From the sequence record PX915678.1: DNA of 64,000 nt. One strand, written 5' to 3'. This document shows positions 1 to 60,992 of this stretch, piece after piece. A program made the position numbers and the translations under genes. Under the pieces are notes generated by a model. That model was given only the letters and a program-made list of their open reading frames with translations, was not told the DNA's origin and did not search any database. How positions within the stretch are numbered: position 1 is the first letter of the stretch; each line of letters starts with the position of its first letter. Source of the stretch: a phage.

Positions 1-2055
1 TCCTTGAACGAACTTGTAAGGCATGTTTGTAATATCTATGCAAGACGCAATAATTCCAAGAGATGATTCTACTTTTTGTTTAACATTTGATGAAACAAAT
101 GATGCAAAGTCAACTCTGTCTTCTATTTCAATATCACCTGTCATTGCAACTACTTCACCAGTTTCCATTAGACGATCACCGTCATAAATTACTGATTCGG
201 TGAGTTCTTCCGTAGTCATAACTTCAGCTTGAATAAGCTTGTTGTTAGTTTTAGCTGTTCCATCATTGTAAGATGCATCGGTTATTTTATTAACTTTGAC
301 CATTAATCCACGTGGTAAAATGACTTCCATTTCATTTGAAGGCGCTAAACTTCCACCTGGTAAAACAACGTTGACTTTATCAGCCCCAGTAATAACCCAT
401 CCAATTCCAACTAAATTATCGCTAGAATTAACAAGTCCTTCATCGTTTTTATCGATAGAAATGTTTAGACGCTTTTCGTCTGGTAAAACACCCACAGCTG
501 AATCAGTCATCCAAGTACCAAAAATGTTTGGATATAATGATGTTGATACAAAATTTCTAAAATAAAAAACTCGATTTTTTACCAATGCTTCATATATTGA
601 AGGTAACATTCGCTGTGAACGATATAAAGTAATACCTTTTGGCAGTCGATCACCATTTTTAAAGGCTGAATCTAAATTATCGATGGCTTGTTCTATTTCT
701 GGTGCTGTTAAAATACTTGTACGTTCATCTGGATTATATAATCCCAAAAGAGCATTATTCATGTCTACATATCCTGAACCTACGTATTCACGAATTCCAC
801 GTTTTTGTGCCGGTGTGTATTTAGACGGATCTTTATTTTCGACTATAGAATGCAATGACCATCCAACGGTAAGAGCATATCCACGTAATTCTCTTCGAAT
901 AATCTTTGTTTTTATTGCATTCCAAGAATTTTGTACTAACTCATTCGCAGCATCTTGATTTAAATGCGAATGCTTGTTAATATTTCTTTCTAACCAAGCA
1001 CCTTTATATTTTTCTAAAGTATCATCGACTATAGAAGCAATAGTTTCTAAAGTTTTTATTGAAGTAATAGATTCTTTTCGTAATCTTTCTAAAGCTTTAT
1101 TTTTTATTTCTGCATTAACATCAGATTCTTTATCTTCAGGAATTATAGAAGCTTCTCTGAATGCCATTCCAGCTGTAACACTATTAAGAGCATTCTCTAA
1201 TGCAAATCCTGAAGTAGAAATAACAGTTAATTCATTAGCATCAGAAATTAAAGGCGCGTCAGCGGGTTTATTTAATTCTGCTGCTGAAGCCTCAAATTTT
1301 TGAAACATTGGTGTTTCAAATCTGGAAGATTCTAACGATTGACTTTGTGCAATTGCTCTACGGGAAATTTTAACTTTAACGATTACAGCTTGGTCAGAAC
1401 GTTTATCGTTTTCTTGTGCAATAGATGCTGCAATTGCCTCATTTTTAGTTACTTGAGCTCCGGTATCTTTATTGATATAAACATCACCGACTTTCGATTC
1501 AACTTTAGTAAAGAGCTCGGTACTAATTTCCGGAACTCCTGGAATGTCTTCTAGTGATACATTTTTGCGATGTATAAGAATATATGCATACTTTTTATCG
1601 TAATCCCAGAGTTCCTTAAGAAGGACGTATCTGCCACCTGAACGACTACGGATAAGTCTATCAGCAATAAGTTGAATTTGACGAGCTTGACCAGCAGTTT
1701 TAGACTTAAGAATACGGAGCATGCAGGCATCAATTTTATACTGACGCATCGTCTGCATCGCAACAGTAAAAACTGAATTGATGTAATTAATTGGGCTTGG
1801 ACCGAGACCTTTTAATTTAGCAATTGAACCTTTGGCAGTTAATGTAAAAGGAACAATATGCATCATTTTATCGCCCATCTTTAAATCGCGATTAGTATCA
1901 CCTCCAGATGTATAGGTACATAAACGAAAGCCTGGCTGTTCAATTGCGTCATCAACATGAACTGAAAAAATTTGTGGTATTTTCTTCTTTGGATTTAAGT
2001 TTGTAATCGGAAGAGTAGTATCTTCGTCAAATAATTCTGTAATGAGTTCCATCAT
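1..2055 (-). CDS. alt: ADP-ribosyltransferase Alt, partial (C-terminal end lies beyond left edge)
   Basis: Minus-strand frame open from window edge to ATG ATG at 2055/2052; N-terminus MMELITELFDED...; >=685 codons; late promoter just upstream. Confidence 0.8.
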   Translation of the reverse strand, partial: MMELITELFDEDTTLPITNLNPKKKIPQIFSVHVDDAIEQPGFRLCTYTSGGDTNRDLKMGDKMMHIVPFTLTAKGSIAKLKGLGPSPINYINSVFTVAMQTMRQYKIDACMLRILKSKTAGQARQIQLIADRLIRSRSGGRYVLLKELWDYDKKYAYILIHRKNVSLEDIPGVPEISTELFTKVESKVGDVYINKDTGAQVTKNEAIAASIAQENDKRSDQAVIVKVKISRRAIAQSQSLESSRFETPMFQKFEASAAELNKPADAPLISDANELTVISTSGFALENALNSVTAGMAFREASIIPEDKESDVNAEIKNKALERLRKESITSIKTLETIASIVDDTLEKYKGAWLERNINKHSHLNQDAANELVQNSWNAIKTKIIRRELRGYALTVGWSLHSIVENKDPSKYTPAQKRGIREYVGSGYVDMNNALLGLYNPDERTSILTAPEIEQAIDNLDSAFKNGDRLPKGITLYRSQRMLPSIYEALVKNRVFYFRNFVSTSLYPNIFGTWMTDSAVGVLPDEKRLNISIDKNDEGLVNSSDNLVGIGWVITGADKVNVVLPGGSLAPSNEMEVILPRGLMVKVNKITDASYNDGTAKTNNKLIQAEVMTTEELTESVIYDGDRLMETGEVVAMTGDIEIEDRVDFASFVSSNVKQKVESSLGIIASCIDITNMPYKFVQG

Positions 2056-2075
2056 ATCCTCTCTAGTGTTTATTC

Positions 2076-2083
2076 TATTTATA
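2076..2083 (-). promoter_or_regulatory. T4-type late promoter (TATAAATA) for alt
   Basis: TATAAATA on minus strand ~20 nt upstream of alt ATG; Alt is a late, virion-packaged protein in T4. Confidence 0.6.
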
Positions 2084-2086
2084 AAA

Positions 2087-2108
2087 TTAAAGGCCCGAAG
2101 GCCTTTAA
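2087..2108 (-). terminator. C(UUCG)G stem-loop with U-run, intrinsic terminator
   Basis: ttaaaggcc-cgaa-ggcctttaa palindrome; transcript reads GGCC-UUCG-GGCC followed by U-rich tract. Confidence 0.55.
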
Positions 2109-2293
2109 TAATCTATTGGTAAGAGAGTACGATATATTTCAAACTTTGGACCTTTTTCATAGGTATCAAATGTTTCTGTGAATTTATTATAAGCATATGC
2201 ATCTATAAATTCAATCATAATTTGTGATACAGAAGTAGAAACATCTCCGCCTTCTTTTTGAGCAACGACAATTGTTTCTAAGTAAGCTTTCAT
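2105..2293 (-). CDS. hypothetical protein (62 aa) between gene 30 and alt
   Basis: ORF start overlaps gene 30 stop by 4 nt; no recognisable motif. Confidence 0.45.
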   Translation of the reverse strand: MKAYLETIVVAQKEGGDVSTSVSQIMIEFIDAYAYNKFTETFDTYEKGPKFEIYRTLLPIDY

Positions 2294-3750
2294 AGACCAG
2301 TTACCTCATGAAAATCACCAAATACATCCTCGAATGTATTAGCTTTAGTTTTATCTTCACGTAAACGAATCGCAATCGGAAGAAATAATTTAACGTAATC
2401 AGTGCGGCCGTCAGATTTTAACCAACCATTGCATTCACATTCTAGAATTTTTCCAATATAATAATTTTGGTTTTCCATAATGCGAGTACGGTCAAGTTCA
2501 TGCGATTTTACACCGGCTTTATCTTTTAAGCCTGAACCAGCATTTACTTTAATTTTTCCACACTCTGATTCAAGAATAAATCCACCCGCTTTAGTTGGGT
2601 CTTTACGGTGAGGATAAATTCCTACAATTTTTAAATCAACATCAATTACTTCTTTAAATTTATAGAGATTTTTTGAACGAGAATTTTCCCATAATCCATC
2701 AATATTTTTGAGAATAATACCTTCAAGACCTTGGTCAATATACTTTTTATAAATTACCTTAGCTTCATCTAGGTTATTTACTACCTGGTTTTCAATTAAA
2801 ATTACTTTATCATATCCTGATGTCATTTGTTCTAGTTTAGAAAAACGTACATCATATTTTAAACGAAACGCCGGAAGACCGTATATTTCTACCAATGGGA
2901 CATAATCCCAGACCTGAAACTTCATGCATTTGGCTTCTTTTTCTGAAATAGTTCCCTTTAAAGATTTATTGGCGATTCCATTAGAAGCAGTACGTGATTC
3001 AGCTACTTCGGCAAACTCTTTGACTTTACTATTTTCAGGAGTATCAAAAAGAAAATCTAGGCCTTCTGGCTCCTTTTCAACTTGCTCATGGTATACCAAT
3101 TCGCCATCGATTAAAACACCTTCTGGATGAATCTGGCGGGCTTCAGCGGTCATTTTGATTAACTCTTCCTTAAGAAGATCTAATCCTAGATATTCATTAC
3201 CAGCTCGTGATAAAAGACGAACATCATCTAATTCATCGCCTCGGACTTCAGCAAAACACCGAGCTCCATCTGCTTTTAACTGTGCAAAGGCTGGAAATTT
3301 GATATTCTTACTAATGCCTTTTTCATCATAAGAACTTGCCAGCATTTGAGGTTGTTCAGGAATTAAACCTGGCCAAACTTTATTTGCAATAGATACTGAA
3401 GCACCGCATTCAAGATCTCGCATCATCACTCGACGCAAAACTTCAACATCATCCTTTTTACCGTCGGTGATATATCCAGTTAATTCCTCAATTGCCGCAT
3501 TTCCAGTCAATTTCCGAGTAGCTAACGTGAATTCAATGAAGTCAAGCATATCGGTAATAGTCAGCATTCCAAAACTCTGGGTAGCAATACCAGGTTTAGG
3601 CCATTTCTTGATATAATACTGTAACCCACGAGAATAAGTCAGACGATATACTCGTTTAAGCAATTCATTATCTTTATTCTTTTCAAGAATTGCTTGCTTC
3701 TGCTTAGTTGATCCAATAGATGCTATTTCATTCAGAATTTTAAGAATCAT
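2290..3750 (-). CDS. 30: ATP-dependent DNA ligase
   Basis: 486 aa; KxDG adenylation motif (LKADGARCFAEV); N-terminus MILKILNEIASIGSTKQKQAILEKNKDNELLKRVYRLTYSRGL as recalled for T4 ligase. Confidence 0.95.
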   Translation of the reverse strand: MILKILNEIASIGSTKQKQAILEKNKDNELLKRVYRLTYSRGLQYYIKKWPKPGIATQSFGMLTITDMLDFIEFTLATRKLTGNAAIEELTGYITDGKKDDVEVLRRVMMRDLECGASVSIANKVWPGLIPEQPQMLASSYDEKGISKNIKFPAFAQLKADGARCFAEVRGDELDDVRLLSRAGNEYLGLDLLKEELIKMTAEARQIHPEGVLIDGELVYHEQVEKEPEGLDFLFDTPENSKVKEFAEVAESRTASNGIANKSLKGTISEKEAKCMKFQVWDYVPLVEIYGLPAFRLKYDVRFSKLEQMTSGYDKVILIENQVVNNLDEAKVIYKKYIDQGLEGIILKNIDGLWENSRSKNLYKFKEVIDVDLKIVGIYPHRKDPTKAGGFILESECGKIKVNAGSGLKDKAGVKSHELDRTRIMENQNYYIGKILECECNGWLKSDGRTDYVKLFLPIAIRLREDKTKANTFEDVFGDFHEVTGL

Positions 3751-4016
3751 TGCTCATCCTTCAAGGTTTGGTTTACAGCTCTATTATAAATCAATTCATC
3801 ATTAAGCTCAGGCAAAGACTTATGATATGTAGTTCTAACTTTATTTCCTTGCATCCAATGCTTGACGTAAATGAAACCTTGCTCTACGCATTTTTTAAAA
3901 ATTCGTTCGTCTTTTTGAGCTCGGAATTCTGGATTGCATCTAAAGAATTGATTTACGTGACCGTAATCACGTGTAGTATTACCTTCATTTTCATAAATAG
4001 TGTGAACGACAAACAT
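3747..4016 (-). CDS. hypothetical protein (89 aa; 30.1 position)
   Basis: ORF in overlapping minus-strand array downstream of gene 30. Confidence 0.55.
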   Translation of the reverse strand: MFVVHTIYENEGNTTRDYGHVNQFFRCNPEFRAQKDERIFKKCVEQGFIYVKHWMQGNKVRTTYHKSLPELNDELIYNRAVNQTLKDEQ

Positions 4017-4846
4017 TAGAATGCTCCTTGAAAAATATTATCACCACTAGTAGGTCTATTATACAAATACTCTATGCCACCAGGTTTAATATAGTTCCAT
4101 GTCTGAAATGGATGTGTCTGATATGGATGATTATAAGGATTAAATCCAGGCGTTCTCCAGGTAGTGTTCCAAGGAAAAGAATCGTTTTTAACCATCTTCT
4201 CAATTAAATCTTTTATAGCTTTTTCACTATCAAAACTTTCTTTATTTTCCTTCGGTGAAAAAAGCTTATTTTCTACATCATTCCATGTATAAACTCGCTG
4301 AGCAGTTTTTGGAATATTGTCACGCTCTCCTCGAGCCATCCAATAAACAGGAACATTTAATATTTCACTCGCGTGGTCGCAGTGGTGAGCGAGATCGTCA
4401 ATATAACAAATTACGTTATATTTCTCTTTTGCCTTTTTAAACAACTCTTCTTTTGAAGAATCATGACCACACATCATTACTTCTGAGAATGCACCAGGAA
4501 AAAGAGCATTCAAATTAAATTGACGATTCAGCAGAGCGTCAATAGAATCACCCAATGCTGTAACAGCTACAAAATTATAATCTTCTTTTAGTTTGTTAAT
4601 TACACATAGAGCATCTTTATATGGGGATAAGTAACGAATAAAATCTGATCGATTATATTTTTCAATTAACTTGACACCGAGTTCTTCATCACAATTAAAG
4701 AGTTTACCTGGAGAAATAAATTTCTCATCTTGGATCATTTTTAAAATATGTTCTAACGGAAGATTATATTTCTGAGCAAAATAAGGAAGACCTGATTGCC
4801 AGCTTAAACATACTCCATCAATATCAGTTAAAATAGTAGGCTTCAT
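4016..4846 (-). CDS. HAD-superfamily hydrolase-like protein (276 aa; 30.2 position)
   Basis: N-terminal LTDIDGV (DxDG motif I of HAD phosphatases); later YIDD motif. Confidence 0.6.
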   Translation of the reverse strand: MKPTILTDIDGVCLSWQSGLPYFAQKYNLPLEHILKMIQDEKFISPGKLFNCDEELGVKLIEKYNRSDFIRYLSPYKDALCVINKLKEDYNFVAVTALGDSIDALLNRQFNLNALFPGAFSEVMMCGHDSSKEELFKKAKEKYNVICYIDDLAHHCDHASEILNVPVYWMARGERDNIPKTAQRVYTWNDVENKLFSPKENKESFDSEKAIKDLIEKMVKNDSFPWNTTWRTPGFNPYNHPYQTHPFQTWNYIKPGGIEYLYNRPTSGDNIFQGAF

Positions 4847-5307
4847 AGAGAGTCTCTTAATAGGTTTAACACATCAATAAATTCAGCTTCGGTTAGTATT
4901 GTATCATCTTTTGTTAGACCACTAGCCATGCTGTGCTTCAAAACTTTTCCTTTCGAGGCTTGTAATGCATCGCGAAAGCCCTTGTTTTGGAACGCTGCTT
5001 CAAAATATGCATTTGTGTATAATTCTTTCCACGCCGGGGAATATCTTGAAAACGGAGTTCCAAGCCAGAAGAGGGTCCCACGGTCCTGAGCTCTAGCATA
5101 AGACCTTCCAGCTTGTTGGGCGGCAAGCCCGGATAACCCAAATATACGACGTTGTTGTTCAACATTTTTCACCTTACACCCTTGGAGGAATCCTTCTAGA
5201 CCTCCAAATTGAATACCATCCATAACGAAAGGCCATTGGGCAAAATTACTTAATGCGCATGATGGCCATTTAAAATTGCTTCTTATCTCTAGCTCAGACA
5301 TTTTCAA
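4843..5307 (-). CDS. NADAR/YbiA-like (DUF1768) protein, putative ADP-ribose-processing hydrolase (154 aa; 30.3 position)
   Basis: Motif ALSNFAQWPFVMDGIQFGGLEGFLQGCK resembles the YbiA/NADAR core FSNFAAWP...DG...E.YFQAQK (from memory). Confidence 0.55.
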   Translation of the reverse strand: MKMSELEIRSNFKWPSCALSNFAQWPFVMDGIQFGGLEGFLQGCKVKNVEQQRRIFGLSGLAAQQAGRSYARAQDRGTLFWLGTPFSRYSPAWKELYTNAYFEAAFQNKGFRDALQASKGKVLKHSMASGLTKDDTILTEAEFIDVLNLLRDSL

Positions 5308-5500
5308 TACTTATAATTTCAACATCAGCCCAATGACCATAGCAAGGAAGACGAAATTCAACTGGCCAGTTAGGGTCCTTTTCTAATATAATAGACTGAA
5401 CTTGTGGCTCTTCATATTCATCGGTATACGGACCTTTATACGTTACTTTATATGTGACTTTAATGTATTGAATTCCAAAAATCTTATTAATTATATTCAT
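5294..5500 (-). CDS. hypothetical protein (68 aa)
   Basis: ORF in overlapping array. Confidence 0.5.
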   Translation of the reverse strand: MNIINKIFGIQYIKVTYKVTYKGPYTDEYEEPQVQSIILEKDPNWPVEFRLPCYGHWADVEIISIENV

Positions 5501-5694
5501 ACTAATTCCTTTAATCCGTAAATAGGAGATAATTCATCACCCATACGAAGGTCTTCATTTCCATCTACCCAGGAAACAATATAAGCTTCTTTTATTTGAA
5601 TACCACTCCATTTAAATGGAGGTAGAACCTTAGAAATTAATCCAGGTATACCAACTCCCTTTAATTCAACAGTTTGACCTAAAAAGAATTTCAT
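5497..5694 (-). CDS. hypothetical protein (65 aa)
   Basis: ORF in overlapping array. Confidence 0.5.
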   Translation of the reverse strand: MKFFLGQTVELKGVGIPGLISKVLPPFKWSGIQIKEAYIVSWVDGNEDLRMGDELSPIYGLKELV

Positions 5695-5981
5695 TAGAAC
5701 CTCATCTGAAAACCGTGCGATTTAACATTACCGCCGCCAATATCAGAAATATTAATTTCACGCGCAATTGAAGGGTCAATGTCAATTTCACGATTGAGTT
5801 TAGTGATAGCTAAAGTATCGCGGCCATTTACAGTACGGAACTCTAAAGGACATACTACATTAACATAGTTTTTAATCGATTCACTGGTAGGTTGCAAATG
5901 AGCAGGAAGGTCTTTAGGCGCCTTTGAGAAAACTACTTCACAGAAATTTTTGCGGGTGTCAAAATAAGTAGTCATAAACAT
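5694..5981 (-). CDS. hypothetical protein (95 aa)
   Basis: ATG with SD (GAGGAAAA); adjacent upstream UUCG hairpin. Confidence 0.5.
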   Translation of the reverse strand: MFMTTYFDTRKNFCEVVFSKAPKDLPAHLQPTSESIKNYVNVVCPLEFRTVNGRDTLAITKLNREIDIDPSIAREINISDIGGGNVKSHGFQMRF

Positions 5982-5993
5982 AGTATTTTCCTC

Positions 5994-6017
5994 AATGAGG
6001 GGCCGAAGCCCCTCATT
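5994..6017 (-). other. GC-rich stem-loop with UUCG tetraloop in intercistronic leader (no U-run)
   Basis: aatgaggggc-cgaa-gcccctcatt; lies between stop of ORF 6023..6400 and the SD of ORF 5694..5981. Confidence 0.45.
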
Positions 6018-6022
6018 TTATT

Positions 6023-6400
6023 TTAAATATCAAATTCGTTAAGAACTACATCAAAGATTGCTTCAAGATGCTCAGGTTTAGCTCTGTTACTCAAAATATG
6101 ACGAATCCAAGTTTTAACCAGAAGCTTACGATTAACGCCATTCCAGCAAGGATGAGTCCCTAAATCGCGTTGACGAAAATCATCATCCAAAGCGATTTTG
6201 AAGTTGGAACCTTCCATTGTGATTGAAACTGTGATGCCATTTTCAAATCGCATATAAACGTAGTTAGGAGTCATATACTGTTCAATTTCGCATACTGATC
6301 CATTTTGATGTTTCCAAAGGCAAATAGTATCAATAGAACCTGCAATACCATTAGAAACATATTTACGTTCAAAGTTGATGTAGTTCATTTTATTCTCCAA
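6023..6400 (-). CDS. hypothetical protein (125 aa)
   Basis: ORF in array. Confidence 0.5.
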   Translation of the reverse strand: MENKMNYINFERKYVSNGIAGSIDTICLWKHQNGSVCEIEQYMTPNYVYMRFENGITVSITMEGSNFKIALDDDFRQRDLGTHPCWNGVNRKLLVKTWIRHILSNRAKPEHLEAIFDVVLNEFDI

Positions 6401-6424
6401 GATGTTTAATTGCGGTACAGGTAT

Positions 6425-6453
6425 ATAATATCATATCCTGTACCAAAGTAAAC
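6425..6453 (-). promoter_or_regulatory. T4-type early promoter (GTTTAC -35 / TATTAT -10)
   Basis: Minus strand reads GTTTAC-17 nt-TATTAT upstream of ORF 6023..6400. Confidence 0.5.
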
Positions 6454-6455
6454 AA

Positions 6456-6788
6456 TTATTTTACTACTTTCCAGTGCTGCATGTCAAGTTTACCAACTTT
6501 TTTCATCTTCTCAATTAAGCGTTCAGCACGTTGGCGAGCTGTAACATAATACCATTCACCCAATTCATTTTGTTCAATTTTTCCAACGATTACTGTATTC
6601 AATTCATAAATCCAACCAGTAAAGAAATTATGAACTTGAATTGTAAAGGTGAAATCTGTTCCCATACCTTCTGTTGTTTCTACTTCAATAATATCACCTT
6701 CAACTGCCATTAAGAACCACATAGTTTCATCATATTTACCATTGAAGCATTTAGTTTTAACTGTAGCGTTCAGATTAATCGTTTTCAT
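6456..6788 (-). CDS. hypothetical protein (110 aa)
   Basis: ORF in array. Confidence 0.5.
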   Translation of the reverse strand: MKTINLNATVKTKCFNGKYDETMWFLMAVEGDIIEVETTEGMGTDFTFTIQVHNFFTGWIYELNTVIVGKIEQNELGEWYYVTARQRAERLIEKMKKVGKLDMQHWKVVK

Positions 6789-6815
6789 TTTATTCTCCTT
6801 TGTTTGTGTAAGATA

Positions 6816-6845
6816 ATACTATCACAAAGGAACCATACTGTAAAC
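6816..6845 (-). promoter_or_regulatory. T4-type early promoter
   Basis: Minus strand GTTTAC...TAGTAT upstream of ORF 6456..6788. Confidence 0.45.
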
Positions 6846-6874
6846 AACTTTGTGCAATCTTTGGAAAATAAAAA

Positions 6875-6894
6875 AGGACTCCCGAAGGAGTCCT
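6875..6894 (-). terminator. C(UUCG)G stem-loop plus U-run, intrinsic terminator
   Basis: aggactcc-cgaa-ggagtcct preceded on plus strand by aaaataaaaa; same hairpin sequence recurs at 60167..60188. Confidence 0.55.
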
Positions 6895-6898
6895 CAAC

Positions 6899-7075
6899 TT
6901 ATGCTTTCTGCTTACCAAAACGAGAAGCATCATCTCGAAGAACCGCACGTGCTCGGCGCATGATCTTCTCAACAGTTTGATTGATACGAGAGTTCGACCC
7001 ACGCTTGTAACCAGCGCGTTTAGAATCACCAACTTTCTTTTCAACTGCTTTCTTTGCTTTAGCTTGTTTTGCCAT
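6899..7075 (-). CDS. small basic protein (58 aa; 30.9 position)
   Basis: MAKQAKAKKAVEKK...; start taken at ATG 7075; track start at 7117 also in frame. Confidence 0.45.
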   Translation of the reverse strand: MAKQAKAKKAVEKKVGDSKRAGYKRGSNSRINQTVEKIMRRARAVLRDDASRFGKQKA

Positions 7076-7117
7076 TATAAATTCTCTTTTAAATGAAAAT
7101 GCAGGACTTATTGGCAT

Positions 7118-7470
7118 TGCCTGCGCAAGCCCTCAAGGGGAACATAGGTTTTGTATATTTACCGACAGGATAACCATAAACCCGTCATCATACTTATAAC
7201 TCTTATCTGTTGCACACCGTTAGCTTAAAGGTTCCGGGTTCGATTTCTCGAGGATAAGATATATACTGATGGATATATAGGCCTTGAGGCGTACTCCCGA
7301 TTAGCCATCACCTCGGGGTAGCATGCACTTGCCGCTATAAGAATAACATTCAAGAGGTACACCGTAAAACTGCCGGGGTCTTAAAACTATAATGATTCGC
7401 AAATCATTAATCAGACAGTTCGACGGCTCCTCGATTTTAGCTCACACTAAGGCAGTGAATCTCCAATAAA
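7118..7470. other. ~350 bp ORF-free region with several inverted repeats
   Basis: No ORF above ~27 codons on either strand; hairpins e.g. aatgatt-cgcaa-aatcatt (7391..7409), gccttgaggc; unusual gap for this genome. Confidence 0.4.
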
Positions 7471-7719
7471 TTACTTCAGTGTTACCACAAAGTGACGAAC
7501 TGCTTTTCGTGCAGCAGAAGCCAAAGGCTTAGCATATTTAAGTTCATCTTTTTCCTGAAGCTCAGCAGCTAATGCAGTTTGAGCAGGATTCAGATGTTTG
7601 AAATAACGCAGGATTTCAAGAGCTTCGGCTTCAACATCAATAGATGCGCCATAGTTTTCGTGACCATTATTCCATGCGTTTCGTTGCAGTTCAAGAGCGT
7701 GTTGTAATTGTTTAATCAT
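7471..7719 (-). CDS. rIII: lysis-inhibition accessory protein rIII
   Basis: 82 aa, position between the 30.x array and gene 31 as in T4. Confidence 0.8.
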   Translation of the reverse strand: MIKQLQHALELQRNAWNNGHENYGASIDVEAEALEILRYFKHLNPAQTALAAELQEKDELKYAKPLASAARKAVRHFVVTLK

Positions 7720-7866
7720 TTAAAAATTCTCGTTAGAGATTAAAACTCGGTAGTCACGTTCTTCTGAATTTCATCTTCTTTCGACAGATCTCTCAGTTGT
7801 AGACTACCACATAGAATTGTTCGGTTAACTTATTATTCCGACACCCAATTCATATTATTATTTATA

Positions 7867-8202
7867 TCACTTATAAAGACACGGAATAGCTTTATAGTGA
7901 CAGGTAACGAATTTTTGTTTAATTTCTTTTGGCTGCTTAAGACCCAGAGCTACAAAAGGATGTGGAACGTTTCGAATTTGACCAACTGGAAGAGAAGTCA
8001 AATCACCAACTTCACAGAAACCTTCAGGAACATCAGGACCAACAGAGTGAACTACACACAGTTCAGGAACTTCACCTTGAACACGTTTACCGATAATAAG
8101 TCCTGATTCTGTAACTTCTTCATCACCGGCTTGTGCAGGTTCAGAAACTAAAATAACATATTCACCGACAGCACGAATTGGTAGCTGTTGTACTTCAGAC
8201 AT
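7867..8202 (-). CDS. 31: co-chaperonin gp31 (GroES analogue)
   Basis: [40 protein letters not shown]...; 111 aa from second ATG. Confidence 0.9.
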
Positions 8203-47719: not shown

Positions 47720-47749
47720 ATTATACCACATCCTTGTGGTAAAGTAAAC
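47720..47749 (-). promoter_or_regulatory. T4-type early promoter
   Basis: Minus strand GTTTAC-18 nt-TATAAT; -35 overlaps gene 39 stop. Confidence 0.5.
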
Positions 47750-49566
47750 TATTGGCTCATCCATTCTTTACGAAGGTCAGCATTATCTCCCATGAGCATT
47801 TCAAAAAGCTCTTTCCAGTTCTCAGGAAGTTTAACAACATCATATACTGGGTTTTGAATCATCTCACGATATTCAGATTTTTCCAAAGAGCCAAGTCCCT
47901 TAATATAACGGATGCTATGTTTAGGTAGAGCATCTTTGGCACTCTCATATTCAGCGACTGTATAAAACCATTCTTGTTTTTTACCGACCTGAGCGATGAT
48001 TACGGGAGTTTTGACGAAGCGAATTCTTCCTTGTTCAAACAGTTCTGGCCAATTACTAAAAAATCCGAGCAGAGAAGGATAAATGCTTCCTAGACCATCA
48101 TGGTCAGCATCAGTCATAATAGCAATATTATGATAATTCAAGTTTTCAGCTTTTTCGCCAAGAACTAATCCAGTGATTGCGCAAATATCAAACAGTTCTT
48201 TGTTTTTAAGCATATCAGCATATGACATACCCCAACTGTTGAGAACTTTACCACGCAATGGATAACCACCGTGAAGTTCTTTATCACGAACATCAATAAG
48301 ATATCCGATAGCAGAATCACCCTCAGTCAAGAAAAGAGTCGTGTCAGCATCTTTACCACAAAGATTCGCTTTAATGTGTTTATGAACCTTAGCTTTAGAG
48401 GCCTTTTTAGCTGCTTTAGTTTCTGCTGCTTTTTCTGCCGCCAATTTACGAGCCAAGGCAGCTTCAATAATTGGCATTAAAATTGCTTCATTGTTTAAAA
48501 TAGCGCGTGAAATCTTTTTAGCATCAAGTTGAATATGACTACGGATTTCACCAAATGGAGAAGTCAAACGCTCTTTAGTTTGAGAATCAAATCGCATGTT
48601 TTTCATATCACGAACAAACATAACGATAGTCAAACATTCTTTGACACGAGCTTTAGTTACATCAATTTTGAACTTACGTTTGATTTGTGGAATAAGGTCT
48701 TCACAAATATCATCCATAACGCAGTCAATATGATGGCCACCATTCTTAGTATGAATGTTATTGACGTATGTTAATTGACGAAAACCATCCGGTGAACGAC
48801 CAACCGCAATAGAACAATTTTCTTGTTCTTGAACAATAGCATGCTCATCATATTGGCGTGCATATTTCTTAAAATTACCCTGAACCTTTTTACCATTAAA
48901 GGTAAATTGAATATCAGGATAAACTACTGCAAGTGTCTGGAGACGATCCAGTGTAATGTCAAGATAAACTTGAGATAGCTCATTAGTTTCAAATGACATA
49001 AAATCAGGAATGAAAGTAACACGAGTTCCTTTCCATTTTCCAGGAATAGTTTCCCATGATTTATTTTCCATGCCATTTGAACAACGAACTACAATATTAT
49101 TTTGACCGTCGCCAGTTTCACCGACAAACATCACAGAAAAAATGTTAGTTAAACTAGAACCAACACCGTTCATACCGCCAGTGACACGTTCTTTATCATC
49201 ACCGAAGTTACCACCTGCTTTTGGAATAGTCCAGGCGGCAACAGGACCGGGAATTTCTTCACCAGTAGGTGTTTTAACCATCGCTTGTGGAATACCACGA
49301 CCGTTATCTTCAACTGTTACTTGATTGTTTTTGATAGTAACATTAATTTTATTCGCGAATTTAAACTTAGTACGAATACCTTCATCTACTGAGTTATCGA
49401 TAATTTCATCAATAAGCTTAACAAGACCAGGTACATACTGAACACTTTCCCATTTACCAAACAGAAAGCGCTCATGCATTTCATTAGCGGAAGAGCCAAT
49501 GTACATGCCGCTACGCTTTTTGATATGTTCAATATCGCTCAGAATTTTAATTTCATTCTTAATCAT
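47749..49566 (-). CDS. 39: DNA topoisomerase II large subunit, unsplit (GyrB-like ATPase plus Toprim in one ORF)
   Basis: 605 aa from MIKNEIKIL; GHKL ATPase N-terminus; Toprim motifs LTEGDSA and MTDADHDG in the same ORF. Confidence 0.9.
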   Translation of the reverse strand: MIKNEIKILSDIEHIKKRSGMYIGSSANEMHERFLFGKWESVQYVPGLVKLIDEIIDNSVDEGIRTKFKFANKINVTIKNNQVTVEDNGRGIPQAMVKTPTGEEIPGPVAAWTIPKAGGNFGDDKERVTGGMNGVGSSLTNIFSVMFVGETGDGQNNIVVRCSNGMENKSWETIPGKWKGTRVTFIPDFMSFETNELSQVYLDITLDRLQTLAVVYPDIQFTFNGKKVQGNFKKYARQYDEHAIVQEQENCSIAVGRSPDGFRQLTYVNNIHTKNGGHHIDCVMDDICEDLIPQIKRKFKIDVTKARVKECLTIVMFVRDMKNMRFDSQTKERLTSPFGEIRSHIQLDAKKISRAILNNEAILMPIIEAALARKLAAEKAAETKAAKKASKAKVHKHIKANLCGKDADTTLFLTEGDSAIGYLIDVRDKELHGGYPLRGKVLNSWGMSYADMLKNKELFDICAITGLVLGEKAENLNYHNIAIMTDADHDGLGSIYPSLLGFFSNWPELFEQGRIRFVKTPVIIAQVGKKQEWFYTVAEYESAKDALPKHSIRYIKGLGSLEKSEYREMIQNPVYDVVKLPENWKELFEMLMGDNADLRKEWMSQ

Positions 49567-49620
49567 CACTTATCCTCGTTTGGTTTCGGGAATATTATAC
49601 TCCGGTAATCATAAAGCTAA

Positions 49621-56768: not shown

Positions 56769-57371
56769 TTATAGATTAAATCCTTCAAAATCAAGAGTAT
56801 AGATAGTGTATGTTGAATACTTTTTATACTCGTATCTATCCGCAATTCTAAATACGCTTCCAGCTGGTATCATTACTTCTTGTTCATCTGAAACTAATTC
56901 CATATTACGATAACGATGGCTATCTGGAAACTTAAAACTCGGGCTATATTCTTTACAACGTAGAGCTTTTATAGCATACTCCTGGAAATTAAACACCATA
57001 GGAGCTTTGAATTCAAAAATAACTTGTGTGTTGTATTCTAATCCAGAAGCAAAATGTAGAGCTATATTTTTATCATATGAAGCTGATACTACTTTATCAA
57101 ATGTAATAATATCAATTCCTTGATTTAACACCTGTTTAGTCTCAACTGGAACACCTCTCCAAAGAGGTTTATCGTTTGGAACCAAACGAGATTTGATTAT
57201 TTCATTTAACCAAGAATGATCGTCTGGCTTATTAGTAATACAATGAATTAAAAGTTCAATTTCGGATAAATTAAATCCTTCAGAAAGTAATTCTTCACGA
57301 ATAGAAGCACGCACCGATGCATCCATTGATTTGATTTTAAAATCTTTTAATTGCATTGCTGAATATTTCAT
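56769..57371 (-). CDS. modA: ADP-ribosyltransferase ModA
   Basis: 200 aa; R-S-ExE signature (LWRGV, SASYD, EQEVMIP). Confidence 0.8.
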   Translation of the reverse strand: MKYSAMQLKDFKIKSMDASVRASIREELLSEGFNLSEIELLIHCITNKPDDHSWLNEIIKSRLVPNDKPLWRGVPVETKQVLNQGIDIITFDKVVSASYDKNIALHFASGLEYNTQVIFEFKAPMVFNFQEYAIKALRCKEYSPSFKFPDSHRYRNMELVSDEQEVMIPAGSVFRIADRYEYKKYSTYTIYTLDFEGFNL

Positions 57372-58003
57372 TCAACTACCTCAATATCATACACTTTAAA
57401 TGTTCCAAATGAATCGTGTAATTTTTCTTTTGAAATAGAAGTTATTTTATACTTTCCAATTGGAATCATCCATTCTTGTTCACGTACAATCATCATTAAG
57501 TTATCAGTACGTTCTGAATCTAATCCATCAGTATCTTCATATGTATACTTAAACTCAGTGTTAGGAGAAGAAAGTATAATATCGCTGATATGGTCAGAAT
57601 AATTAAAAGCTTTATCAGTTTTTAAGCGAAATATTATTTCAGTGGAATATTCAACATAAGAAAAACCACATGCTGTGTGCAAACTAGTAGTAAATGAATC
57701 TACTCTATTCGTTGAAAACACTTCTCCAACTTGTAAATCTTTAATGAGTTCTTTTGTCGATTTTGATATACCACGATATAGCTGATAAGGTGATTTAGTT
57801 AAATGCTTTTTAACGATTTTATTCAACTGCCGATGAAGAGCTTCATTCTTTTTGGCTTCCATACATTGCCAAAGAATTGACTGTTCAAAGTCAGTAAATT
57901 TTTCACAGACCTTTTTATACATATCATATTGAAAATCAACACTTTCAGCTTTTATAGATAACTGTTCAACATCTGCAAGATTAATAATCATGATAGCCTC
58001 CAT
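57368..58003 (-). CDS. modB: ADP-ribosyltransferase ModB
   Basis: 211 aa; LYRGI ... EQEWMIP; paralog of modA, 4-nt overlap. Confidence 0.8.
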   Translation of the reverse strand: MEAIMIINLADVEQLSIKAESVDFQYDMYKKVCEKFTDFEQSILWQCMEAKKNEALHRQLNKIVKKHLTKSPYQLYRGISKSTKELIKDLQVGEVFSTNRVDSFTTSLHTACGFSYVEYSTEIIFRLKTDKAFNYSDHISDIILSSPNTEFKYTYEDTDGLDSERTDNLMMIVREQEWMIPIGKYKITSISKEKLHDSFGTFKVYDIEVVE

Positions 58004-58873: not shown

Positions 58874-59077
58874 TCACGATTTATCCCCATAGATGTCTCT
58901 CATCAATTTAAGCGCTGAGCGTTCTAATTTCTTTTCTTTCTCAGCACTAATCATTGATTTCATCCATTCTTCCGATTCGTTCTGCATTTCTTTATTTGCT
59001 TGTTCAACCCAACCATCGTCAATATACATTGAGTTTGGTCTATTGAACCATTCAAGCATTTTCTTCAGAACTTTCAT
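58874..59077 (-). CDS. hypothetical protein (67 aa)
   Basis: ORF. Confidence 0.45.
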
Positions 59078-59549
59078 TTGTTTTACCTAAAATAACAGTA
59101 GGAGCATCATCAAATTCATGAATTTTTAGCAAATTTGGATGTAAACTATTCCATACAGAAGAAATAAAGTATGATAAAGCATCTTCACTTGCAATTATAA
59201 ATTTATTTCCTTTATCTATTTTCCAACTATATACTGAATCATACGAATAAAAAGATAAAGGTTTATCATTATATTGTTCTGCGCTAACATTAATGTATTC
59301 TGATTTAGTAAATGCTTCAATTGCTCTAAATGGAATATTTGGTACAGTTTCAATAATACCAATCTTTTTAAGTTTTATTTCAGCATCTTCTGGAACTGGC
59401 ATTGAAACGAAATTTTCTACGAGATACATTGGGTCACAATAACCCTTATCAGTCATTACTGCTACGGTAATTGGAACGTCTTTAGCAAACGACAAACTAT
59501 TACTGCTAATATACATTTCAAACAAAATCGCTTCCATAATTTTCCTCAA
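59052..59549 (-). CDS. hypothetical protein (165 aa)
   Basis: ORF coupled to neighbours. Confidence 0.5.
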
Positions 59550-59884
59550 TCACAAGATGTAGATGAACAACTAGAATCACAAGAACTTCCACATGAATCG
59601 CCCGTCCATACATGAACAGGAACATTAGTATCATATGAATCAGAACTAGACTGTGTATTCTGCGCATTAGATGATGTAGGTGTTGACCAACGCCAAGGAT
59701 TTTTATAATATTCCTGGGCTTCTTCATACGTCATAGTAACCGCTTCTACTGTTCCATCTCCCATATAAACATATTCAACTACAGTTAAAGGAAGGTAGTC
59801 ATTTGAAATAGGAACTACACCTTCTCCGGGAGTTGTAGAGAAAAAATCCGTAAAGAAACTTTTAAACCAATTAAAGATAAACAT
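59546..59884 (-). CDS. hypothetical protein (112 aa) with Ser/Cys-rich C-terminal tail
   Basis: Hydrophobic N-terminus; C-terminus ...[19 protein letters not shown]. Confidence 0.5.
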
Positions 59885-60096
59885 TACAAAAAGCCTCTTT
59901 GAAATTCGACTCTTTGAAATCCACCCCAGTCAGTGTATCGCATTTCAGCATTGAACTCGACTGAACCATCTGCATGCATCATGAATGAATGCGTGACGAT
60001 ATCACAATCCCAGCTTTTCATACCCCATTTATCAGAGATAGCTTTATCAAGAACCTTCTGGAGGTCTTCATTTGGTTTAATCCAACGATTTAACAT
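59884..60096 (-). CDS. hypothetical protein (70 aa)
   Basis: ORF downstream of early promoter. Confidence 0.5.
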   Translation of the reverse strand: MLNRWIKPNEDLQKVLDKAISDKWGMKSWDCDIVTHSFMMHADGSVEFNAEMRYTDWGGFQRVEFQRGFL

Positions 60097-60122
60097 AGTG
60101 CTCTCCTCTATAAGATAATTCT

Positions 60123-60152
60123 ATTATACCATACTTGTTTTGGAAAGTAAAC
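60123..60152 (-). promoter_or_regulatory. T4-type early promoter
   Basis: Minus strand GTTTAC-18 nt-TATAAT. Confidence 0.5.
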
Positions 60153-60166
60153 CGGTAAAATGAAAA

Positions 60167-60188
60167 AAGGACTCCCGAAGGAGTCCTT
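60167..60188 (-). terminator. intrinsic terminator downstream of soc
   Basis: aaggactcc-cgaa-ggagtcctt with U-run; same hairpin as 6875..6894. Confidence 0.6.
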
Positions 60189-60194
60189 GAATTA

Positions 60195-60431
60195 TTAACC
60201 ACTTATTTGTGTAGGCGTAAACATTGCAGCATTCTTAGTTTTCCAATCAGCTGCATCAGAAACTACGGTAGAATATGCTGCCTTTTCAGAAGGAAAGATC
60301 TGATAATGAGAATCTGCGATACGATGCTCGTTAGAATAAATTTCAAACGGAACAGAAACTTCCATACCTTTAACTTCTTTGCCTTCACCTGCTGGATGAG
60401 TAAAGGTCTTGATGTTAACGAAACCACCCAT
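60195..60431 (-). CDS. soc: small outer capsid protein Soc
   Basis: 78 aa; ...YQIFPSEKAAYSTV... matches Soc as recalled; late promoter upstream. Confidence 0.8.
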   Translation of the reverse strand: MGGFVNIKTFTHPAGEGKEVKGMEVSVPFEIYSNEHRIADSHYQIFPSEKAAYSTVVSDAADWKTKNAAMFTPTQISG

Positions 60432-60462
60432 AATAAACTCCTTTATTGTTTAATTACAGGTG

Positions 60463-60470
60463 TATTTATA
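60463..60470 (-). promoter_or_regulatory. late promoter (TATAAATA) for soc
   Basis: TATAAATA on minus strand ~32 nt upstream of soc ATG. Confidence 0.6.
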
Positions 60471-60473
60471 TCA

Positions 60474-60992
60474 TCAATAACCTCGGTCTTGACGAGCGAA
60501 GTTTTCAGCATTTTTCAGATAATAAAGTTTAAAGATTTCTTCAGCAGTAAGACCGAGACCTTGGAACATGTTCAGAACGAAATGAAGAATATCAATCATT
60601 TCGAATTTAATTTCCAACTGGTCTTGTGGAGACAAATCAGTAATTAAAGTTTCACGGCGTTCACCGTGTTGCGACTTCCAAGGTTTCCATACAGCAGATG
60701 CATCTTTTTCACCATTGCTCATACCACCAAGAGAAGTCAGAAGTTCGCGGAATTCATCATCAATATAATCTTTCTGATTACGCAGCCAATCAACAACTTC
60801 ACCTGCAGTAGCCAAATCATCAGGATGATGGTTATATTCAGGTTTATCTTTAGCTAAACGAACCTGCAGAGATTTCTGCATATCAAGCATAACCTGCAGC
60901 GGGTCTTTTTCATCACCGAGAATATCCCAGTATTCATTTTGAGCTTTATCAGCGCCTTCAATCAGTTGACTACATTCATTAAAGTAAGCCAT
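60474..60992 (-). CDS. 56: dCTPase/dUTPase (MazG-like NTP pyrophosphatase)
   Basis: 172 aa from MAYFNECSQLIEGADKAQNEYWDILGDE; SD AAGGAAAA; track N-terminal extension rejected. Confidence 0.8.
   Translation of the reverse strand: MAYFNECSQLIEGADKAQNEYWDILGDEKDPLQVMLDMQKSLQVRLAKDKPEYNHHPDDLATAGEVVDWLRNQKDYIDDEFRELLTSLGGMSNGEKDASAVWKPWKSQHGERRETLITDLSPQDQLEIKFEMIDILHFVLNMFQGLGLTAEEIFKLYYLKNAENFARQDRGY

Follow-up and report, generated by a model that had tools for sequence, protein, structure and literature searches.

A T4-type adfN gene in a Tequatrovirus genome, predicted to encode a NADAR enzyme that counters DarTG1

The Tequatrovirus (T4-like) genome segment analysed here, a stretch of 64,000 nucleotides (record PX915678.1) that we refer to as the window, carries a minus-strand gene at 4843..5301 that corresponds to gene 30.3 of phage T4. 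We conclude, with a probability of roughly 0.93, that this gene is adfN and that its product is an orphan antitoxin-like NADAR, a DNA guanine-ADP-ribosyl glycohydrolase predicted to counter DarTG1. Orthology, fold, catalytic residues and the full-length state of the allele come from our analysis, and enzymatic activity, base specificity and the anti-DarTG1 phenotype come from the literature on the T4 protein. Experiments on the T4 protein have already established the feature, and we add no new knowledge of it because that work was published in 2024-2025 for a protein that differs at four residues. The biology is important: a lytic phage would repair its ADP-ribosylated DNA with an enzyme of the bacterial antitoxin type, encoded as an orphan copy.

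Gene identity and genomic setting

A 2.3 kb region around adfN matches 712 phage records, the best of them at 97.6% identity. Mapping of T4 proteins onto the window gave the order alt, alt.1, 30, 30.1, 30.2, 30.3, 30.4 to 30.9 and rIII, with every gene from alt to rIII encoded on the minus strand at 92-100% identity to T4. By this mapping alt occupies 1..2052, gene 30 (DNA ligase) 2293..3750 and gene 30.2 4019..4846 (ORF 4016..4846), each on the minus strand. The neighbourhood of adfN is thus a tightly packed, co-oriented gene array, and the ligase-proximal array that an earlier sequence-only reading of this DNA had proposed is recovered in its usual T4 order (alt–alt.1–30–30.1–30.2–30.3–30.4).

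The ORF list of the window places a minus-strand frame of 154 aa, counted from a TTG, at 4843..5307. Both this ORF and the NADAR-like motif quoted from it in the sequence-only reading (ALSNFAQWPFVMDGIQFGGLEGFLQGCK) are indeed present. With a 232-bit match to PF08010 and 97% identity to T4 gp30.3, the frame is, as judged from its sequence, not a chance ORF. The window protein and T4 gp30.3 are identical at 148 of 152 residues in a gapless alignment with a shared C-terminus. Since the T4 proteins map in their canonical order on the window, we assign the gene as the ortholog of T4 gene 30.3 (AdfN).

The start codon is likely the ATG at 5301 and not the TTG at 5307. In the T4 annotation, 30.3 is a gene of 459 nt and 152 aa that starts at an ATG matching window position 5301, and tblastn places T4 gp30.3 at 5301..4846. 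The published numbering of residues E36 and K43 also counts from the ATG two codons downstream of the TTG. Because the T4 annotation and the published numbering both use the downstream ATG, the gene is most likely 4843..5301, encoding a 152-aa phage-type NADAR by its PF08010 match, T4 identity and fold. The two extra codons of the longer frame (TTG AAA, 5302..5307, minus strand), which emerge from comparing the ORF list with the T4 annotation, are probably untranslated. At ATGTCTGA, the adfN ATG shares bases with the stop codon of gene 30.4, its upstream neighbour on the minus strand (5294..5500), which encodes 68 aa and belongs to phrog_2042. At its other end, the stop of adfN overlaps the start of gene 30.2 by 4 nt.

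A further ORF, 30.3' (4938..5165, minus strand, 75 aa), lies wholly inside adfN in the +1 frame. It is annotated in T4 as 'internal translation in a different reading frame', and the window copy is 93% identical. Relatives with at least ~84% identity keep the frame open over 76 codons, whereas distant homologs do not. The status of 30.3' as a gene is uncertain; conservation of the frame is uninformative at that divergence.

Neither tRNAs nor Rfam families were found in scans of the entire window, and a promoter and terminator scan of 2000-8000 gave the same counts as shuffled sequence. Two strong GC-rich hairpins with T runs lie in intergenic gaps, at 5994..6017 (30.7/30.6) and at 6895..6874 (30.9-30.8, minus strand), and a near-consensus sigma-70-like site, TTGACA-18-TAAAAT, is found upstream of 30.7 on the minus strand (6487..6458); overall counts of such hairpins and sigma-70-like sites in the region are not above those in shuffled sequence.

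Two other regions of the window were recorded. A single minus-strand ORF at 47749..49569 encodes a 606-aa GyrB-like topoisomerase (HATPase_c, DNA_gyraseB and TOPRIM_C domains) and adjoins an rIIA-sized ORF. T4 splits its GyrB-like topoisomerase subunit into genes 39 and 60, with translational bypass, and this phage appears to have an unsplit subunit. The minus-strand region at 59055..60992 is mosaic relative to T4, with identities of 76% for mrh, only 46% for soc and 73% for gp56 between flanking genes at 94-100%. In T4, soc and 56 are separated by the homing-endonuclease gene segF, for which tblastn found no match in the window.

NADAR family membership and predicted fold

The window protein matches the Pfam family PF08010 (Phage_30_3) with an E-value of 2e-69 and 232 bits (cut-off 36), over profile positions 1-138 of 138. 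A search of the same protein with the PF08719 (NADAR) HMM, the check proposed in the sequence-only reading, gave no direct match at E<=1. The outcome was positive by way of the family: 11 of 74 members match PF08719 by themselves (best E=1.5e-7), and when the family profile was compared by hhalign with the YbiA of the K-12 genome, the two aligned over SNFA..DG..E..Q..KF with 94% probability and E=1.3e-7. A link to NADAR proteins therefore exists at the profile level. Furthermore, when the PF08010-family profile was searched against PDB sequences, E. coli YbiA was the sole match (E=0.0024), aligned over SNFA...DG...E..Q..KF.

A homolog search yielded 107 proteins, all with PF08010; some carry YbiA/DUF1768-like names from JGI, and one also has PF08719. 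The alignment used below contains 74 full-length homologs with 35-88% identity to the query. Homologs of gp30.3 occur in 1511 of 50,697 phage records. In all 30 records listed of these 1511, the T4 reference record included, the 30.3 homolog is labelled 'hypothetical protein', so annotation of the gene trails the AdfN literature. Many database entries are short gp30.3 fragments of 89-126 aa with 78-96% identity, for example in phages SV76, vB_Eco_NR1 and UGJNEcP4 and in LR990704.1. Truncation or frameshift may have produced these forms naturally, as in the RB69 allele of adfN, but gene-calling artefacts could also account for them. If they are true alleles, the short forms would predict sensitivity to DarTG1.

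An AlphaFold2 model of the window protein, computed with the homolog alignment as input, has a mean pLDDT of 94.4 and a pTM of 0.89. The top three Foldseek matches in the PDB, each with a probability of at least 0.99, are 2b3w (YbiA; E=3.2e-5, TM 0.68), 8bau and 8bat. The entry 8bau is a Phytophthora NADAR (PnNADAR) with ADP-ribose, and 8bat is the Geobacter lovleyi NADAR (GlNADAR, DarG1). Beyond these three NADAR structures, the search of the PDB found nothing credible, with the next match at E=3.9. The structural comparison with E. coli YbiA that had been suggested for this ORF thus returned the NADAR fold with YbiA as the best PDB match, and the NADAR/YbiA assignment of the sequence-only reading proves correct by family profile, hhalign and fold.

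Invariant columns among the 74 homologs include P13, A16-F20, F25, E36, G37, F38, Q40, K43 and H123. Both E36 and K43, the catalytic Glu and Lys with which NADARs contact ADP-ribose, are present in the window protein and align with the E..Q..K of YbiA. H123 (in LKHS) directly follows a predicted strand at residues 120-122, and a C-terminal helix is predicted at 138-151 with pLDDT >90. The four substitutions relative to T4 (K11R, T82V, F104I and M125I) all lie outside the invariant and nearly invariant columns.

Function of AdfN and the role of neighbouring genes

The function of the T4 protein is documented in several reports. Johannesman et al. (Nat Commun 2025, PMC11825919) describe mapping the DarTG1 resistance of T2 and T4 to 30.3 by means of recombinant RB69 chimeras, and renamed the gene adfN, for anti-DarT factor NADAR. 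As that paper reports, T4 or T2 without adfN form no plaques on DarTG1 cells, and adfN supplied in trans rescues RB69 on DarTG1; the gene is described as both necessary and sufficient for DarTG1 resistance. The variants E36A and K43A gave only partial rescue, seen as a mildly reduced titre and small plaques, and a truncated AdfN of the RB69 type had reduced activity. In vitro, DarT1-modified DNA lost its ADP-ribose with purified wild-type AdfN and, as described, not with E36A (PMC11825919). Schuller and colleagues (Toxins 2024, PMC11125620) report that T4 gp30.3 hydrolyses guanosine-ADPr and not thymidine-ADPr in vitro; they also describe that a position in the last strand is occupied by His in phage NADARs, by Glu in YbiA and by Asp in DarG1. 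A 2026 paper again found the T4 NADAR active on G-ADPr (PMC12945103). The substrates described for the NADARs tested are ADP-ribosylated bases, namely guanine and, for some members, cytosine (PMC11125620, PMC12945103). In a 2025 transposon-sequencing preprint (HIDEN-SEQ), 30.3 insertions are reported as lost specifically on DarTG1 hosts (10.1101/2025.11.20.689424), and adfN is described as essential only when DarTG1 is present and otherwise dispensable on E. coli K-12 (PMC11825919; 10.1101/2025.11.20.689424).

On this background, the window gene would be expressed as part of the early/middle gene array downstream of rIII. Host DarT1 would ADP-ribosylate guanine in the phage DNA and block its replication; AdfN would hydrolyse the guanine-ADP-ribose bond and restore the DNA, and the restored DNA would permit phage replication in DarTG1-carrying cells. 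E36 and K43, the glutamate and lysine conserved among NADARs, would serve in catalysis, for which the C-terminal helix would be required. From the near-identity to T4, the presence of E36, K43 and H123 and the intact C-terminal helix, we expect the window allele with its four substitutions to function against DarTG1 as the T4 protein does. Nothing in the analysis speaks against this reading.

The sequence-only reading had suggested counter-defence against DarT-type toxins. This holds for guanine-ADPr and DarTG1, as shown for the 97%-identical T4 protein, but not for thymine-ADPr and DarTG2; T4 AdfN is described as not countering DarTG2 (PMC11825919, PMC11125620). The phrase 'DarT-type toxins' is too broad for an activity confined to guanine-ADPr and DarTG1. 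The T4 factor reported to act against DarTG2 is tk.4/adfM, a macrodomain protein (10.1101/2025.11.20.689424). By its T4 map position this gene should lie outside the window, which corresponds to T4 ~123.4 kb via the origin to ~16.5 kb.

AdfN seems to need a T-even factor because DarT1 in uninfected E. coli is reported as not neutralised by T4 AdfN (PMC11825919, PMC11125620) and because the non-T-even phages T5 and Bas25 are only weakly rescued by it (PMC11825919). The authors infer a further T-even factor for full AdfN activity (PMC11825919). By adjacency, the product of gene 30.2 is a candidate for this factor.

Gene 30.2 (4016..4846, minus strand) encodes 276 aa with 97% identity to T4 gp30.2, comprising a predicted HAD-superfamily domain at residues ~1-200 and a low-confidence tail. 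The protein matched no Pfam family at E<=1 and no curated HAD model, falls in PHROG 420 ('unknown function'), and gave nothing in a phmmer search against PDB sequences. As Pfam, PHROGs and phmmer against the PDB were uninformative, the HAD assignment needed a motif alignment and a structure. All four HAD motifs (DxD, S/T, K and DD) are found in gp30.2: across 58 homologs, D8, D10 and K132 are invariant and T96, D150 and D151 nearly invariant. The AF2 model has a pLDDT of 85, with residues 1-200 confident and the tail <50. Foldseek returned 98 PDB matches at E<=1e-3, and the HAD fold was present in 50 of the 50 listed; among these listed matches, the tightest superpositions were with 5'(3')-deoxyribonucleotidases (rmsd 4.3-4.6 A). 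Motifs and predicted fold agree that gp30.2 is a HAD-like hydrolase, as the sequence-only reading had proposed for this ORF. The tail (residues ~200-276; 4016..4250, minus strand) is rich in aromatic residues, Pro and Asn (FPWNTTWRTPGFNPYNHPYQTHPFQTWNY) and has a pLDDT <55; many homologs, at 196-220 aa in length, lack it.

The alternative that survives best is that AdfN and gp30.2 form a two-enzyme module, in which gp30.2 potentiates AdfN as the T-even factor or acts further on the released ADP-ribose or on a phosphorylated intermediate. Several features are compatible with it: 30.2 lies directly downstream of 30.3 on the same strand with the 4-nt overlap, gp30.2 has a bona fide predicted HAD fold with intact motifs, and full AdfN activity is said to require another T-even factor (PMC11825919). 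Every complete close relative has gene 30.2 after 30.3, and 30.2 also lies within ~1.5 kb downstream in six loci with 43-45% identity (L015, L016, L032, L033, L047 and L057). However, in a synteny sample of 80 viral-contig loci with a gp30.3 homolog and a 6 kb neighbourhood, a gp30.2 homolog was found within 6 kb in only 20. These 20 comprise all close T4 relatives with complete flanks and seven of the roughly 40-45%-identical loci, and the T4-like pairing is accompanied by the entire conserved block (ligase, 30.1 and 30.4-30.8). Across the 80 loci, no partner gene common to the family was found beyond the T4-lineage synteny block. One apparent neighbour cluster, spanning 48 loci, was rejected as it was merely the antisense reading frame of gp30.3 itself. 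Furthermore, the available text of the HIDEN-SEQ preprint names only 30.3/adfN as lost on DarTG1, with 30.2 unmentioned (10.1101/2025.11.20.689424), and NADAR hydrolysis is described as requiring no phosphatase in vitro (PMC11125620).

Because the pairing travels with the whole ligase-30.x block, it looks like inherited T4-lineage synteny rather than a conserved two-gene module. For the functional link between AdfN and its HAD neighbour that was implied in the sequence-only reading, the 80 loci thus provide no evidence, and we regard the two-enzyme module as improbable. The narrower proposal, that gp30.2 is translationally coupled to adfN and supplies what AdfN needs outside T-even infection, is a similarly long shot; if true, 30.3-30.2 would be a two-gene counter-defence module.

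T4 protein mapping also locates modA (56772..57371) and modB (57371..57991), and all three ADP-ribosyltransferases noted in the sequence-only reading (alt, modA and modB) lie inside the window. Alt, ModA and ModB modify arginines in proteins, with ModB linking RNA to proteins as well. The idea that AdfN mainly reverses or balances ADP-ribosylation by these enzymes could draw on the three transferase genes in the same genome, with alt ~2.8 kb away. However, their known substrates are proteins and the tested NADARs are described as acting on ADP-ribosylated bases (PMC11125620, PMC12945103), and adfN is reported to be dispensable on K-12 and essential only with DarTG1 (PMC11825919; 10.1101/2025.11.20.689424). 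This idea is largely refuted by the conditional-essentiality data, and we give it almost no weight. A functional tie to alt, modA and modB, for which nothing was found in support, was rejected on substrate chemistry and the published conditional essentiality. Scarcely credible as well is a metabolic role for the phage gene, with its product working as a housekeeping N-glycosidase of the YbiA type on intermediates of the riboflavin pathway. YbiA, an annotated N-glycosidase, is the closest solved structure by Foldseek, but the subfamilies are told apart by a residue that is His (H123) here and Glu in the YbiA family (PMC11125620), the gp30.3 clade is nearest to DarG1 NADARs in the published phylogeny (PMC11825919), and the DarTG1 phenotype accounts for retention of the gene.

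Relationship to known systems

Preferring the reading of the window gene as adfN, we compared it with the closest known systems. The nearest is T4 gp30.3/AdfN (PF08010), with 97% identity over 152 residues, equal length, the same flanking genes, E36, K43 and H123, and the C-terminal helix. The window protein is unlike it in the four substitutions; with none at conserved columns, a functional difference is not expected. RB69 gp30.3 is the same gene at the same locus, but a 1-nt insertion there is reported to cost the last 15 residues and the phage is described as DarTG1-sensitive (PMC11825919), whereas the window allele is full length.

Among bacterial proteins, the window AdfN resembles the DarG1 NADAR antitoxin of DarT1-NADAR (DarTG1) operons, represented by Geobacter lovleyi 8BAT (Foldseek probability 0.99, TM 0.61 on the query). 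DarG1 and T4 AdfN are reported to share guanine-ADPr DNA hydrolase chemistry and to form the closest clades in the published tree (PMC11825919). Unlike DarG1, AdfN is an orphan without an adjacent DarT and without the N-terminal extension. In the last strand, the Asp of DarG1 is replaced by His in AdfN, and T4 AdfN is described as lacking DarT1 neutralisation in uninfected cells (PMC11825919, PMC11125620). E. coli YbiA (PF08719 NADAR/DUF1768; 2B3W) is the best structural match and shares the SNF...E..Q..KF motif, but it is only 18% identical, belongs to a separate Pfam family, has Glu at the distinguishing position and has a housekeeping or riboflavin-related role.

Like the window AdfN, AdfN(Bas32) and AdfN(Bas60) of T5-like and Vequintavirinae phages are phage-encoded NADARs that are reported to counter DarTG1 (PMC11825919). 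Unlike it, they are placed in different NADAR clades, are described as independently acquired, and work without T-even infection (PMC11825919).
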